Shown: positions 26,217 to 41,897 of the stretch, piece after piece
Layout: each line of letters opens with the position of its first letter
How positions within the stretch are numbered: the stretch's first letter is position 1
Origin: Acidobacteriota bacterium
GTDB taxonomy: Bacteria; Acidobacteriota; UBA6911; RPQK01; JAJDTT01
DNA length: 64,000 nucleotides
Assembly: GCA_965217775.1 (NCBI GenBank)
Contig: CBDCJH010000002.1
Coordinates: 896,001-960,000, forward strand
Direction of reading: 5' to 3'
Made by a program: the position numbers and the translations under genes
Notes under the pieces: generated by a model
What the model was told of the DNA's origin: nothing
What the model saw: only the letters and a program-made list of their open reading frames with translations
Databases searched by the model: none

Positions 26217-27544
26217 CATAAGAGCTAACTTGATTGCCTGACCACTATCTTGTATAGTGTCGGCATGAGCCAAACGGTAATAAAAGCGGCTGCGAATGAG
26301 GACTGGGACTTGCTGGTGTCATTTTTCCCAGCCAATTGGCTGGATCTGGCGGCCTCGACCGGAGCCCTGAAGGGCCTGCGCAAGGACAAGTCGCCGGAAA
26401 ACCTGTTGCGGACCCTGCTGATCCATCTCGGCTGCGGGCATTCCTTGCGCGAAACCGTGGTGCGGGCTCGGCAAGCGAGCCTGGCAGATCTGTCCGACGT
26501 GGCCCTGCTCAAGCGGCTGAGGAAATCCCGCGACTGGCTCTACGCCCTCTGCGTGGAACTGTTCCGGGAGCATGGCATCGCCGTCTCCAAGAGCGCAGGC
26601 TTCCAAGTGCGGGCGTTCGATGCGACGACCGTGCACGAGCCCGGCCGGACCGGGTCGGTGTGGCGCCTTCACTACAGCGTCAACCTGCCTTCGCTCGGCT
26701 GCGATTTCTTCAAGCTGACCGCATCGCAGGGGCGCGGCACTGGCGAGTCGTTCAGGCAGTTCCCGATCCGGCCGGGCGATTACGTGCTGGCCGACCGCGG
26801 CTACTCGACTGCGGTCGGGATTCAGCACGTCGCGGCTGGCGGAGGGTACGTGACGGTGCGCGTGAACACCGGATCGCTGCTGCTGGAAACCGAGGCTGGC
26901 CAAGCGTTCGACCTGCTCGCAGCCGTGGAAACGCTGCCGCGACCGAGGCCTGTCGGCCGTTGGAGGGTCCGCACCGTGGCCCGGGCCGGGCCACCCGTGG
27001 CGGGCCGGATCTGCGCGGTGCGCAAGACCGACGAAGCCATCGAAGTCGCGCATGCCAAGATCCGCCGGACGGCTCAGCGCAAGGGCAAGCAGGTCCGGCC
27101 CGAAACCCTGCGGTTCGCGCGCTTCGTCATCGTTTTCACAACCTACCCAGCGGAGGCATTCCCAGCGGCCGATGTGCTGGAGTGGTACCGCCTCCGCTGG
27201 CAAGTCGAACTGGTCTTCAAGCGCTTCAAGTCCCTGGCCCAGCTCGGGCACCTGCCGAAGCACGATGACGCAAGCGCCCAGGCTTGGTTGTATGGCAAGC
27301 TGCTGGTGGCGCTGCTGGTCGAAAAGATGGTCCGCCATGCGCGGACCATTTCCCCCTGGGGATACGACGTCGCGACCGGACAGGACTCCCAGCCCGTGGC
27401 GTGACTTCAAATTCGCATTGAACCAAGTCACGCGAGCCATCGAGCGGGCGTATTCCCTAAGACGCATGGTCGCCGAATGGCACGAAATCTCGGCGTCTTT
27501 GGCAGAACCTCCCCGGAGAAGGTCCAATCAAATTAGCTCTTATG
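26217..27544 (+). mobile_element. IS4-family insertion sequence (~1328 bp)
   Basis: Terminal IRs cataagagctaacttgattg / caatcaaattagctcttatg; flanking duplication ggacggagccc / ggacggagtcc (10/11). Confidence 0.88.
26265..27404 (+). CDS. IS4-family DDE transposase
   Basis: AFDAT, LADRGY, YRLRWQVELVFKRFKS (YREK signature). Confidence 0.9.
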   Translation: MSQTVIKAAANEDWDLLVSFFPANWLDLAASTGALKGLRKDKSPENLLRTLLIHLGCGHSLRETVVRARQASLADLSDVALLKRLRKSRDWLYALCVELFREHGIAVSKSAGFQVRAFDATTVHEPGRTGSVWRLHYSVNLPSLGCDFFKLTASQGRGTGESFRQFPIRPGDYVLADRGYSTAVGIQHVAAGGGYVTVRVNTGSLLLETEAGQAFDLLAAVETLPRPRPVGRWRVRTVARAGPPVAGRICAVRKTDEAIEVAHAKIRRTAQRKGKQVRPETLRFARFVIVFTTYPAEAFPAADVLEWYRLRWQVELVFKRFKSLAQLGHLPKHDDASAQAWLYGKLLVALLVEKMVRHARTISPWGYDVATGQDSQPVA

Positions 27545-27603
27545 GGACGGAGTCCCCCCTCTACACTTTCCGGCCACCGAATCGCATAGCCACACAGAAG
27601 AGC

Positions 27604-27678
27604 AGACGACAAGAAAGTCGTTTGTCCCAGGAGGCGGCAAGAAAACCGCCTCTCCCAGTGGGCGACAAGAAAGTCGCC
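27604..27678. repeat. Cluster of three REP-like palindromes; the last is the IS110 target
   Basis: agacgacaagaaagtcgttt, gaggcggcaagaaaaccgcctctcc, gggcgacaagaaagtcgcc. Confidence 0.7.
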
Positions 27679-27707
27679 TGTACCCTTCTCAAGTAGTCTT
27701 TAGGGAA

Positions 27708-27876
27708 CTTCGCCCACGGTGGGTGAAGAGGGCCAACCGGCCGGGAGCTACCATAAAGCCGCAGCGCTCTCAGAGCACCTGGAGGGGACTCGTGCCCCGG
27801 CCGGTTGCCGCGATGGAGGCCCCGTGGGAAGTTTGGATCCACGAATGCCAGTACAGGAATTGGTCCGGATCGCGGC
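27708..27876 (+). ncRNA. IS110 bridge RNA (5' hairpin, target-binding loop, donor-binding loop); ends approximate
   Basis: Hairpin 27708-27728; stem caaccggccggg/cccggccggttg enclosing aaagccgc and ggagggg (match target); stem gccgcgat/atcgcggc enclosing gtgggaagt and gtacagga (match donor junction). Confidence 0.82.
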
Positions 27877-27911
27877 GGCCCGACGTCCATTTAATCACTA
27901 GGAGGTTCGGG

Positions 27912-29159
27912 ATGAAACCAAGTCAATGGTTTGTGGGGGTCGATTGGGCGTCCCAGGCGCACCAAGTCTGCGTCGTGGATGAGCGAGGCACCTGTCAGGG
28001 ACAGCGCAGCTTCCCGCACAGCGGTTCGGGCCTGGCCCAGATGGCCGACTGGATCCTGCAGCAGACGGGGACGAGAGCGGAGGCCGTCTCGGTGGCGATT
28101 GAAGTGCCGCACGGTCCGGTGGTGGAGTTTTTGATGGGGCGATGCTTTGTCGTGTATGCCATCAATCCAAGGCAGGTGGATCGATTCCGCGACCGCTTCT
28201 CGCCGGCGGGCGCCAAGGATGACCGCCGCGATGCCCGGGTGCTGGCCGACGCGATCCGAACCGACGGGGATCGCTGGCAACAGCTCGAACCGGTCGATTC
28301 TGAAATGATCCAACTGCGCGAGTTGTCCAGACTGGGTGCGCAGTTGACCCGCGATCGGACCCGGCTTCTCAACCGCCTGCGCCAACAACTCTGGCGCTAC
28401 TATCCGCAGTTCCTACACCTGAGTAAGGATCTCGCCGAGCCCTGGGTGATGGCAGTGTGGAAGCTGGCCCCGACACCGGATGCGGCCCGGAAGCTGCGTC
28501 CGAGCCGGGTCGCCAAGATGTTGAAACACCATCGGATCCGGCGCATCGACGCCCCCGAGGTCCTGCGTCGCTTGCGGGTACGCTCCATCCCGGTCGCCCC
28601 GGGCACCACCCAGGCGATGAGGGTCCACATCGAAAGTCTCGGTGAGCGCCTGGCCGTGGTGCGGAACCAACTCCGGGACATCTCTCGTGAGCTCGACCGT
28701 TTGATCCGGGCTTGGGAGAAGCGGTGCGAGTCGACCCCGGGGCCCCAAGGACCGTCCCGGGACGTGGCGATCCTCGCCTCCCTGCCCGGGGTCGGCCGAA
28801 TCGTTCTGGCCACCCTGCTCTCGGAAGCCTTCGATCCGCTCCGGCGCCGAGATTACGCCGCCTTGCGCTGTCTGTGCGGGGTCGCCCCCGTGACCCGGCG
28901 TTCCGGCAAATACACCCGGGTCGTGCGCCGCCAGGCCGTGCATCCTCGTTTACGGGAGGCGGCCTATCATTGGTCCCGCGTGGCCACGCAACACGACCTC
29001 ACCAGCAAGGCCAAGTACGCTGCCCTGCGGGAGCGCGGCCACGGCCATGCCCGGGCCCTGCGGTCCGTTGCCGATCGCCTGCTGGCGGTGGCCTGCGCCA
29101 TGTTGAGAAACCAGACCGTGTACGATGCGAATCATGTGAGGCAGCGCCGTGCTGCTTGA
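27912..29159 (+). CDS. IS110-family recombinase (DEDD + Tnp-Ser domain)
   Basis: RBS aggagg; VGVDWA, AIE, KDDRRDA; SLPGVG, GVAPVTRRSGK. Confidence 0.93.
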   Translation: MKPSQWFVGVDWASQAHQVCVVDERGTCQGQRSFPHSGSGLAQMADWILQQTGTRAEAVSVAIEVPHGPVVEFLMGRCFVVYAINPRQVDRFRDRFSPAGAKDDRRDARVLADAIRTDGDRWQQLEPVDSEMIQLRELSRLGAQLTRDRTRLLNRLRQQLWRYYPQFLHLSKDLAEPWVMAVWKLAPTPDAARKLRPSRVAKMLKHHRIRRIDAPEVLRRLRVRSIPVAPGTTQAMRVHIESLGERLAVVRNQLRDISRELDRLIRAWEKRCESTPGPQGPSRDVAILASLPGVGRIVLATLLSEAFDPLRRRDYAALRCLCGVAPVTRRSGKYTRVVRRQAVHPRLREAAYHWSRVATQHDLTSKAKYAALRERGHGHARALRSVADRLLAVACAMLRNQTVYDANHVRQRRAA

Positions 29160-29406
29160 TCCGGATCTGGACCGAGGGACGTTATAGGCTCCACCCTGGT
29201 GCGGTCGCTCCAGAAGCTCAAGAGCGATGTCCATCCGGGCGACCATGGACTGGACCCGGGGATCGCTTCACCAGGTCAATGGGAACCACCGTACCAGAGA
29301 GGACCCCCAGGGGGAGGCCCGGCGAAGGGAGCGTAGCGACCGCAGCGGGGCCTCCCCCTGGGGGTCAAATCTCGCTTGAAGAAGGGTGGGAAGTCCCCTC
29401 CTAGTA

Positions 29407-29429
29407 GACGACAAGAAAGTCGCCTCTCC
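29407..29429. repeat. REP-like palindrome
   Basis: gacgacaagaaagtcgcctctcc. Confidence 0.65.
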
Positions 29430-29778
29430 TAGTCGTAGCTCCTTGTCCGGCGCTGGCCCATGTAGAGTTCCCGGATCCGGGCCAGGTCCCGGTCGTAGCG
29501 GCCGTCTCGAAAGTCGGGGAACGCCCACTCCAGAGGCCGGTACCGGCCCTTCCGGTAGCGGCTCATCAGGTCGGCGTAGACGCCCTGGCCCAGGTGGATC
29601 TTCTGGCCGGCGAACTTCATGCTGGCCAGGACCACCTTGCTGTGGTCTAGATAACCCGCGTCCAGATTGACCCGCCGCCGGCCCTGACGGGCCAAGCGCT
29701 CCTCGATCCGGTTGCACGTCAGCTTCATCTCCGGAAGGGATTCCGGCGGAATCATTCGGGAGAAGCTCATGAGGCGCC
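29429..29778 (-). pseudogene. Duplicated 3' portion of the DUF4416 gene
   Basis: 29458-29778 aligns without gaps to 31175-31495 (offset 1717) with scattered substitutions; lacks the 5' end. Confidence 0.88.
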
Positions 29779-29937
29779 TTAGTCGGCGACTCGGGCCCCC
29801 TGTTGGCGGGCGTAGAGACGCGCCGCGGTAGAATTATGAATAGAGGTCAGTTCGGATGGACATGTAGTCCCATTCAAAGACCGTACCTTGCCTTCGAGTC
29901 TTGGGCTCAGTGGATGGATCGGAGTTAATCCAGAGTA

Positions 29938-30388
29938 CTATCGTTTTTCTTCCACTGCCGGATGAATTGCGGTTATGCATTCGGCAATCATGTCGCCAAT
30001 CAGCTCCGCCTCTGGTGAGTCTGCCGGAGGCAGTCCCAAGATCTCGCTATGGGACGGGTCGTCTGTATAGGTATCTTCTGCGGCTAACGGCCGGTTCACA
30101 AACCGGACGCCATCCAGTTCATCATGAACATATTGCTTTGTGGAGCCCACGTGTAGTTCAGCTAATCGGCCATTCCTGCCCTTTTGCAACCTGATCAGCT
30201 GCCTCACACGCTGAAGTTGCCGAGGTTTGGAAAGCCCTTCAAAACATTCCAGCCAATGGACGGACAAGCCGGCCTCTTGACGATCGGAGTTGGAATGCCT
30301 CGCCGCCTACGGTCCCGTCTTCGCGAACCAGAGTAGGTCTGGCATAGCGGACCACGTGGCTGTCGTCTGTCAGGTCTTCGCATGTCAT
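29938..30388 (-). pseudogene. Frameshifted hypothetical protein
   Basis: MTCEDLTDDSHVVRYARP...AFQLR continues in another frame as LSVHWLECF...DPSHSEILG; break near 30270; start overlaps upstream stop (ATGA). Confidence 0.55.
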
Positions 30389-31154: not shown

Positions 31155-31682
31155 CTATCGGGCCCGGCGCCAAGCCATGTAGAGTTCCCGGATCCGGGCT
31201 AGGTCCCGGTCGTAGCGGCCGTCTCGAAAGTCGGGGAACGCCCACTCCAGAGGGCGGTACCGGCCCTTCCGGTAGCGGCTCATCAGGTCGGCGTAGACGC
31301 CCTGGCCCAGGTGGATCTTCTGGCCGGCGAACTTCACGCTGGCCAGGACCACCTTGCTGTGGTCCAAATAACCCGCGTCCAGATTGACCCGCCGCCGGCC
31401 CTGACGGGCCAGCCGTTCCTCGATCCGGTTGCACGCCAGCTTCACCTGCGGAAGGGATTCCGGCGGGATCATTCGGGAGAAGCTCACGAGGCGCCGTCGC
31501 AGCGACGGTCCCATCTCTTTTTCGTAGTAGTCGGTGACGTCAAATGGATGGTCGGCTCCACTGAAGTCGATGGTTCCCCACTTGAGTTCCAATTGCTCCA
31601 GCGCCATGTCGCGGGATTGAACACCAGCCCAGAGGAGGGCCACCAGGAGCTTGACCGGCTCCACCGCTTCAACTTGAGCCAC
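31155..31682 (-). CDS. DUF4416 family protein
   Basis: TDYYEKEMG..L.R, RRVNLDAGY, WAFPDFR motifs. Confidence 0.85.
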   Translation of the reverse strand: MAQVEAVEPVKLLVALLWAGVQSRDMALEQLELKWGTIDFSGADHPFDVTDYYEKEMGPSLRRRLVSFSRMIPPESLPQVKLACNRIEERLARQGRRRVNLDAGYLDHSKVVLASVKFAGQKIHLGQGVYADLMSRYRKGRYRPLEWAFPDFRDGRYDRDLARIRELYMAWRRAR

Positions 31683-41825: not shown

Positions 41826-41893
41826 TGTGTAGAGGGGGGGCTTCCAGCCCCCCCTGACCCCCCCGAATCGGCGGCAAGAAAGCCGCCGCTCCG
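41826..41893. repeat. Intact REP pair (BIME-like)
   Basis: gtgtagagggggggcttccagccccccct ... cggcggcaagaaagccgccgctcc. Confidence 0.7.
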
Positions 41894-41897
41894 CTCC

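Follow-up and report, generated by a model that had tools for sequence, protein, structure and literature searches.

The 64-kb stretch of Acidobacteriota DNA analysed here (contig CBDCJH010000002.1, positions 896,001 to 960,000; hereafter the window, to which coordinates refer unless another contig or locus is named) almost certainly carries, at 27679-29394, an autonomous insertion sequence of the IS110 group whose left end encodes a predicted bridge RNA, with four guides that meet at a CC core. A first-pass annotation, made from the letters alone, had proposed for it the bispecific bridge-RNA layout of IS110 recombinases, and this assignment has held: the protein matches the family, the RNA is conserved among relatives, and its target guides covary with the flanks.

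The Element and Its Insertion Site

The element is 1,716 bp long and lies between two copies of the dinucleotide CC (27677-78 and 29395-96), which by inspection of the sequence are the sole duplication common to both junctions. It splits an array of repetitive extragenic palindromic (REP)-like units of the host, and the parts that define its boundaries are the following.

27597-27678, forward strand: left part of the host REP-like array, with the third unit split by the element (direct-repeat family D1, spacings 28, 28 and 1746)
27670-27678, forward strand: left target half AAAGTCG and left copy of the CC core (27677-27678), from the sequence
27679-27911, forward strand: left non-coding end of 233 nt, which begins with TGTAC and encodes the predicted bridge RNA
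29160-29394, forward strand: right non-coding end of 235 nt, which holds a long palindrome at 29302-29366 (inverted repeat I2)
29386-29396, forward strand: left donor half (the right terminus, ending in GGGAAGT) and right copy of the CC core (29395-29396), from the sequence and the relatives
29397-29433, forward strand: right target half CCTCC (29397-29401) and the next REP unit (29399-29433), from the sequence and repeat analysis

The array has a 28-nt period, with units starting at 27597, 27625 and 27653, then the element, and then a unit at 29399. Taking out 1,718 bp, which is the element and one core, restores the 28-nt spacing (1746 = 28 + 1718), and the 14-mer restored in this way has 17 unoccupied copies in the genome, against 0.085 expected from base composition. 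An empty site was searched for among 20 relatives, and seven loci were compared: both flanks are contiguous in L092 only, the orthologous site of a same-genus genome, where positions 1402-1525 (left flank) are contiguous with 1501-1790 (right flank), and within this empty-site locus the element has no match. In L093, the flanks are about 1.2 kb apart, and the remaining loci matched the right flank only. The 28-nt period, the 17 empty copies and the L092 site together bear out the earlier claim that removing the element restores a REP target.

As for the termini, TGTAC or TGTAT is present in 79 of 81 related copies, and repeat analysis found no terminal inverted repeat of at least 12 nt. By eye, AAGGGT at 29382-29387 is the reverse complement of ACCCTT at 27682-27687, which makes a 6-nt inverted repeat just inside the termini; its inner GGT/ACC is retained in the junction strings of several distant relatives. 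This repeat may be the short subterminal inverted repeat mentioned by Durrant et al. in their description of the IS110 group.

Four Guides and the Handshake

Four segments of the left end match the two halves of the target and the two ends of the element, the target guides preceding the donor guides.

27755-27763, forward strand: left target guide AAAGCCG with CA facing the core (7/8 to its own flank; sites of L008 and L013)
27781-27789, forward strand: right target guide GGAGG with core-facing GG (27786-27787) and handshake AC (27788-27789), reverse complement of GT+CC+CCTCC at the right junction
27824-27834, forward strand: left donor guide GTGGGAAGT with TT facing the core (match to the right end)
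27851-27859, forward strand: right donor guide GTACA with core-facing GG and handshake AA (27858-27859), reverse complement of CC+TGTAC

The guide strings had been placed at 27755, 27781, 27824 and 27851 by the first-pass annotation, and these positions and the match counts given with them all agree with the sequence. On the target side, AAAGCCGC at 27755-27762 shares 7 of 8 bases with the left flank AAAGTCGC (27670-27677), and GGAGGGG at 27781-27787 is the reverse complement of CC+CCTCC (29395-29401; 7/7); on the donor side, the match at 27824-27832 to the right end (29386-29394) is 9/9, and GTACAGGA at 27851-27858 is the reverse complement of T+CC+TGTAC across the joined ends (8/8). Two of these strings are now read more finely: all eight bases of the last one match, but the eighth is a handshake position and not part of the guide proper, and the 7/7 of GGAGGGG is followed by two further bases, AC, which are handshake positions as well. 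In terms of the host repeat, the left target guide reads the 3′ part of the REP loop and the 3′ arm, with the crossover at the base of the stem, and GGAGG corresponds to the CCTCC tail; the donor loop is addressed to the two ends of the element itself, GGGAAGT on the right and TGTAC on the left.

When the 233-nt left end was simulated 20,000 times as a first-order Markov sequence, the single matches were reached 1,447, 2,428, 38 and 74 times, respectively, and all four jointly in no case; a chance origin of the four matches is excluded.

Regarding the handshake, the accounts of IS621 pairing in PMC11208158 and PMC13626964 place a two-base handshake guide after each right guide; once the top strands are exchanged, this handshake guide pairs with positions 6-7 of the other DNA. 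In the target loop of the present element (GGAGG-GG-AC), the handshake AC pairs with the donor GT, and for this reason the match at the right junction spans 9 nt instead of 7; in the donor loop (GTACA-GG-AA), the first A, which is the eighth base of the 8/8 match, pairs with the donor's own T. By the counting rule that Hiraizumi et al. use for IS621, the element has 1 Watson-Crick handshake pair before the exchange and 2 after it, and the figures for IS621 in the handshake account of PMC13626964 are 1 and 3. By these pairings, the forward bias of the handshake is retained, but it is carried by the target loop alone. With wobbles counted as pairs, 44 of 53 distinct cases have a pair between target position 7 and the donor-loop handshake base beside the core, and none of the 8 cases from the window's clade has one.

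Structure and Conservation of the Bridge RNA

The left end is predicted to encode a structured RNA, about 190 nt long and laid out like a bridge RNA, with a 5′ hairpin, a target-binding loop and a donor-binding loop.

27708-27728, forward strand: 5′ hairpin of the predicted bridge RNA (minimum-free-energy fold; relatives)
27733-27881, forward strand: core of the bridge RNA, with the target-binding module first and the donor-binding module second (covariance model R1)
27736-27805, forward strand: target-binding module, with outer stem 27736-27748/27794-27805, internal loop and inner hairpin at about 27764-27777
27809-27874, forward strand: donor-binding module, with outer stem 27809-27814/27869-27874, internal loop and inner hairpin at about 27835-27849

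The minimum-free-energy fold of 27677-27912 contains the hairpin at 27708-27728 and two long stems, each with an internal loop inside; the hairpin and the two large internal loops described earlier are therefore present. Since the z-score of the single sequence is unremarkable, comparative evidence was relied on. A protein-based scan of 185,579 species genomes gave 282 relatives, of which the best 80 loci were used; with the three copies in the window's own genome, they make 83 copies with 51 distinct RNA regions, and 49 distinct sequences entered the RNA alignment after L062 and L076, whose RNA is truncated at the 5′ side, were dropped. The 5′ hairpin is found at the same place, with a z-score below -1.5, in 29 of 49 distinct relatives.

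For the 49 sequences RNAalifold predicted 30 pairs, with compensatory changes at 22. The stems were tested on 28 pairs, two pairs inside the right target guide having been removed: 94.8% of the cells are paired, against 81.5% in shuffles; both-sided changes occur at 22 of the 28 pairs, against a shuffle average of 14.8; and none of 500 shuffles reached any of the five stem measures. Sliding the partner columns by 1-3 positions lowered the paired cells to 31-47%. Both-sided changes are spread over both modules, at 8/12 and 3/4 pairs in helices 1 and 2 of the target-binding module, and at 6/6, 2/2 and 3/4 pairs in helices 3-5 of the donor-binding module.

Because Rfam 15 has no matching bridge-RNA family, a covariance model was made from the relatives. 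This model, R1, was built as a leave-out test from 42 sequences outside the clade of the window element, and it matches 27733-27881 over its full length with 125.8 bits (E ~1e-20), the only match in the 64 kb; genome-wide it has exactly three matches, one per element copy. The covariance-model search suggested with the first annotation has accordingly given a positive answer, with a model that comes from other clades.

Two variations of the left end were observed. In L062 and L076, the 5′ half of the RNA, with the target-binding module, is swapped for unrelated sequence, and the donor-binding module and the gene are retained; the left ends of these two copies are truncated or rearranged. Also, 13 nt between the terminus and the 5′ hairpin (window 27685-27699) are present in the window element and most close relatives and missing from copies B and C of the same genome (described below); this variable stretch precedes the structured part of the RNA and is close to where transcription is expected to start.

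Covariation of Guides and Targets

In the covariation test, the termini of each copy were placed from the donor guides, and the target guides, which were not used for the placing, were compared with the flanks. The left guide matches the left flank over a mean anchored length of 6.43 nt, against 3.68 nt in permuted pairs (56 distinct pairs), and the right guide matches the right flank over 6.36 nt, against 3.69 nt (47 distinct pairs); on neither side was the observed value reached in 10,000 permutations. The proposal to collect further copies and look for joint change of guide and target has thus been answered in favor of guidance. The right flanks of L023 and L077 do not fit their guides and are likely wrong (L077 has two candidate sites), and both were retained in the test. 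The permutation counts overstate the significance somewhat, because the relatives are not independent; the base-for-base changes of guides within the close clade do not hinge on such independence. As for the donor guides, their covariation is hardly testable because the donor is nearly invariant in the clade (AGT-CC-TGTAC/T).

The close clade comprises copies with 80-97% amino-acid identity in three Acidobacteriota genomes, and its left guides and occupied flanks are these.

Left guide AAAGCCG, in this copy, L008 and L013: flank AAAGCCG-CC in L008 and L013, AAAGTCG-CC in this copy
Left guide AAAGTCC, in copies B and C of this genome: flank AAAGTCC-CC in copy C, AAAGTCG-CC in copy B
Left guide ACAGTCC, in L009-L011: flank ACAGTCC-CC, in a REP with a different loop
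Left guide AATGTC, in L012 and L014: flank AATGTC-CC

The clade shows no variation in the right guide GGAGG or the right half CCTCC, and each of its ten copies occupies a REP-like hairpin. The left guides of this copy and of copy B differ at one base from the sites occupied, and the sisters are perfect (L008 and L013 are 95-97% identical to this copy); since the occupied REP differs from the left guide at one base, this copy is most likely a one-mismatch insertion. Together, the relatives form a small natural retargeting series, with four left guides and four repeat variants in three related genomes, and, if true, this would be a natural case of a left guide rewritten stepwise so as to keep pace with stem and loop variants of a repeat of the host.

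The genome of the window holds three copies of the element in all. Copy B (G000:C2:2465634-2467400; L002) is 82% identical to the window element and shares about 100 nt of unique flank on each side with L013, an A-type copy of a related genome, so that two variants of the element occupy the same REP array at an orthologous locus; the REP units occupied by copy B and L013 differ by a compensatory stem change (GGCGAC/GTCGCC against GGCGGC/GCCGCC). Copy C (G000:C2:4640357-4641906; L003) has a complete RNA region and gene and occupies an AAAGTCC-CC site that matches perfectly; it resembles copy B as far as about 130 nt past the stop codon, and no right terminus was found for it, the copy being 3′-truncated.

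The REP Family of the Host

The REP unit is a hairpin of the GGCGAC-AAGAAA-GTCGCC type followed by a C/T-rich tail. A loose hairpin scan of the whole genome gave 337 matches (palindromic ones counted on both strands), with three compensatory stem variants (GGCGAC/GTCGCC, GGCGGC/GCCGCC and GGGGAC/GTCCCC) and loops that are mostly AAGAAA; the units often stand in arrays with a 28-nt period, and examples in the window are 27597-27687, 29399-29433 and 41870-41895. Same-genus genomes also have many short matches to the unit.

The predicted target of this copy occurs genome-wide at 4 exact sites, against 0.14 expected, and at 62 sites within one mismatch, against 5.6. These numbers, with the sister guides that fit other REP variants, uphold the idea that the RNA is tuned to the REPs of its own genome. 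At the unoccupied REP near 41879, which had been singled out as an exact match of the left guide, the sequence reads AAAGCCGCC-GCTCC: the left guide is indeed exact, and the right half is one base off CCTCC. For genome annotation, the element shows the REP arrays of its host to be landing pads for IS110 elements.

The CC Core Across the Clade

Right ends were located in 59 of the 81 copies, within a search window of 700 nt and with some loci ending early, and the other 22 were left out of the right-side test; AGT followed by CC is present at all 59. On the left side, CC precedes TGTAC/TGTAT in 79 of 79 copies by construction, because CC is part of the left-end search pattern. Opposite the core, the right-side guides have GG in all 49 distinct RNAs (a single CA call by regular expression, in L042, is an artefact). 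Left donor guides face it with TT in 26 of the 49, and with CC in only 2.

The CC core is therefore shared by a whole clade that extends over several phyla, rather than being special to this copy; the records of the clade come from Acidobacteriota, Rhodothermales, Alpha- and Gammaproteobacteria, Gemmatimonadaceae and Binatota. The suggestion that the element uses a CC rather than a CT core stands in this wider form, with the qualification that the left guides pair with the core imperfectly. Possible variant features of the clade are its CC core, left guides that pair loosely with this core, and a handshake that is one-sided. A stronger view can be put forward only tentatively, namely that these copies belong to a natural and widespread group of bridge recombinases for which a CC core is obligatory, with left guides that touch the core by G-U wobbles or not at all, and with a REP-targeting subclade that has its forward handshake on the target loop alone.

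A natural CC core for IS110 was not found in the literature, although the supplementary tables of natural elements of Durrant et al., which lay outside the search, may well contain the clade. The statements on cores in PMC11208160, 10.1101/2025.05.14.653916 and 10.64898/2026.08.14.744561 concern CT cores, tested AT, GT and TT cores and a GT filter, with no CC among these statements; nor do the papers searched mention left guides that pair only loosely with a CC core. If the enzyme prefers CC, its core specificity would be orthogonal to that of the CT-core enzymes used for editing, and more sites could become reachable by bridge editing.

At the right junction of L023, a record of Azospirillum canadense, CC is followed by TGTACC, the first bases of the left end, and then by unrelated sequence; possibly, the L023 element inserted next to a donor-like half-site or to what is left of another copy.

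The Recombinase Gene

The single gene of the element and its ribosome-binding site are located as follows.

27900-27905, forward strand: ribosome-binding site AGGAGG, 6 nt ahead of the ATG (sequence)
27912-29159, forward strand: IS110-family DEDD/serine recombinase gene, 415 aa (PF01548, PF02371, NF033542, match to the IS621 structure)

The protein matches PF01548 at residues 8-165 (E 6.3e-36) and PF02371, the C-terminal Tnp domain with the catalytic serine, at residues 286-369 (E 1.8e-15); it scores 191 bits with the NCBIfam equivalog NF033542, "IS110 family RNA-guided transposase", for which the cut-off is 140. Its sole match to a solved structure is the IS621 transposase, 8wt6_A (E 1.3e-7). 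The catalytic residues of IS621 are D11, E60, D102, D105 and S241 according to the active-site description in PMC11208158; the residues aligned with them are D11, E64, D104, D107 and S331, and all five are present. Among 65 distinct full-length relatives, D11, E64, D104 and S331 are invariant and D107 is found in 64; the pair S331-G332, aligned with the S-G of IS621, is invariant in all 65.

A longer frame, from 27723, was set aside as an artefact of the open upstream frame, as all relatives have N-termini that align with the ATG at 27912. As a separate observation, a 46-nt fragment on the reverse strand at the very start of contig 2 (G000:C2:421-466) is 87% identical to window 27900-27945, which holds the ribosome-binding site and the start of the gene; it may be the remnant of a further copy or an assembly-edge effect.

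A Predicted Junction Promoter and the Proposed Mechanism

A scan of the integrated locus found no sigma-70-like promoter (0 hits). Instead, two promoter-like hexamers lie at opposite ends of the element.

27681-27686, forward strand: -10-like hexamer TACCCT, which gains a -35-like partner only with the ends joined (junction scan)
29376-29381, forward strand: -35-like hexamer TTGAAG, which lies 17 nt from TACCCT in the joined (circular) form

The best-scoring hexamer pair falls at the same junction-spanning position in 29 of 37 distinct junctions. For IS621, PMC11208160 and PMC13626964 report a junction promoter and weak expression from integrated copies; by analogy, the host polymerase may use the TTGAAG-17 nt-TACCCT promoter of the junction.

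If the element works like IS621, it would excise as a circle, and the joined ends would create this promoter, leading to more RNA and more recombinase. A tetramer of the recombinase holding the RNA would then pair the circle junction with a REP site, bringing the two loops into synapsis; the serine would cleave next to the core, and strand exchange at CC would give a scarless insertion. Finally, pairing of the target-loop handshake AC with the donor GT after top-strand exchange may drive the reaction forward.

Points Against and Alternative Explanations

Several observations weigh against the reading of the element as a working, RNA-guided IS110 insertion sequence. This variant is present only once in the 6.4-Mb genome; its junction promoter (TTGAAG/TACCCT) agrees with the consensus at just 7 of 12 positions, and the 95%-identical L008 has TTGACA; the left target guide differs at one base from the site it occupies; and the handshake AA of the donor loop finds no partner in the CG of the REP target, although it does pair with the donor's own T. 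In addition, the left guides of this copy face the core with CA (target) and TT (donor) and not with CC, the single-sequence fold is not unusually stable (z = -1.22), and Rfam 15, searched over 27000-30000 with E up to 10, gave no bridge-RNA family, only 12 weak unrelated matches that are all below thresholds, none in the left end.

Regarding the core-facing bases, all four guides of IS621 pair with the core according to the guide description in PMC11208160, and such pairing by all four guides is not found in this element. With its imperfectly pairing left guides the element deviates from IS621 in a detail, and core pairing by all four guides does not define the IS110 family as a whole.

Most of the other points would suit a genuine bridge-RNA element of the IS110 group whose present copy is decaying or strongly attenuated and has lost transposition, which is unlikely. 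The single occurrence of the variant, the -35 hexamer weaker than in its close relative and the one-base difference of the left guide would all agree with attenuation, as would the truncated 3′ end of the sister copy C; and a donor-loop handshake that fits its own donor and not the target lowers insertion in the IS621 experiments described in PMC11208158. Nevertheless, the 415-aa frame is open and its catalytic residues are complete, all stems of the RNA are intact, as the 125.8 bits from a model of other clades attest, and both termini and the core are preserved. The handshake, with 1 pair before the exchange and 2 after it, is still biased forward, and copies with 95-97% amino-acid identity stand at other sites of a related genome, which indicates recent movement.

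It is very improbable that the protein chooses its target by the structure of the REP hairpin, with the guide-like matches having no role. The target does lie in the 3′ arm of a hairpin, the ten close-clade copies all occupy REP-like hairpins, and the stem-loop of the ISPpu10 target is described in 10.64898/2026.03.19.712850 as adding specificity beyond base pairing; however, guides covary with the flanks also in relatives whose targets are not this REP, and within the clade each REP variant is mirrored base by base in the guide. Gating by structure could come on top of RNA guidance, not in its place.

Finally, the notion that the four matches are due to chance and that the region is merely the 5′ untranslated leader of the transposase gene, for which the unexceptional fold and the silence of Rfam might speak, has next to no probability and is refuted by the simulations, the compensatory changes in the stems, the covariation of guides and flanks, and the match of an independent covariance model.

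The Right End and Neighbouring Genes

The palindrome of the right end (29302-29366) has 22-nt arms that are 95% complementary and a 21-nt spacer. In the alignment with the 97%-identical L013, inspected by eye, the spacer is reverse-complemented between the same arms, which suggests that it has flipped; in the sister variant B the palindrome is missing. It may be a terminator or a nested repeat. MicroRNA-like Rfam matches at 29295-29377, on both strands, merely reflect this palindrome and were discarded.

As for the neighbourhood, a 384-aa frame on the forward strand (26250-27404) has a DDE_Tnp_1 transposase domain (E 2.8e-16) and ends about 270 nt to the left of the element, so that this IS110 copy adjoins another, unrelated insertion sequence. 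Directly to the right, a DUF4416 frame on the reverse strand (29429-29770) spans only positions 60-162 of the 162 of the profile; a second copy of this stretch, 95% identical, lies about 1.7 kb further on (around 31164-31495), which suggests a local duplication or another insertion between the two DUF4416 copies.

Comparison with Known Systems

In conclusion, the element represents, from a distant branch of the family, the bridge-RNA system that Durrant et al. 2024 and Hiraizumi et al. 2024 described. The rules of bridge RNAs, namely loop layout, strandedness of the guides, handshake bases and split promoter, can be read from the sequence in an uncultured, soil-type lineage far from Escherichia coli. 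Bridge RNAs were predicted in 85.7% of the IS110-group elements of ISfinder, according to the survey figure of Durrant et al. (PMC11208160).

With IS621 of Escherichia coli, as described in the main accounts of PMC11208160 and PMC11208158, the element shares the two protein domains, the catalytic residues and an RNA in the left end. The order of 5′ hairpin, target loop and donor loop is the same, with left guides that equal the top strand and right guides that are complementary to it, and so are the 2-nt core, the handshake dinucleotide after each right guide, the natural REP targets and the promoter split between the ends. The differences, as far as these accounts of IS621 extend, are also clear. 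The two proteins are only distantly related (E 1.3e-7), and the core is CC here and CT in IS621; the right target guide pairs 5 nt beyond the core, whereas Durrant et al. give IS621 a four-base right guide with the core included. Unlike in IS621, the left guides mostly face the core with U-U or mismatches, the REP target of this clade is not matched by the donor-loop handshake, and the right end is as long as the left one (235 and 233 nt).

ISPpu10 and ISPpu9 of Pseudomonas putida, in the descriptions given in 10.64898/2026.03.19.712850 and PMC12288879, likewise insert in repeated extragenic hairpins, recombine at a fixed dinucleotide found at both ends, and have several copies per repeat family. 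They differ in host phylum, REP family and dinucleotide (AG is reported for ISPpu9).

Elements of the IS1111 group with their seekRNA, as portrayed in PMC11187229, have in common with this one a DEDD transposase and an RNA that selects the target. In that group, by the group description in PMC11208160, the RNA lies in the right end and the subterminal inverted repeats measure 7-17 bp; here the RNA lies in the left end, the RNA model matches that end only, and terminal inverted repeats of at least 12 nt are lacking, so that membership of the IS1111 group does not apply. Overall, the element adds a new case, clear but ordinary, to the RNA-guided recombinases that were described in 2024: the class is well described, and targeting of REP sequences was already known for IS621, ISPpu9 and ISPpu10.

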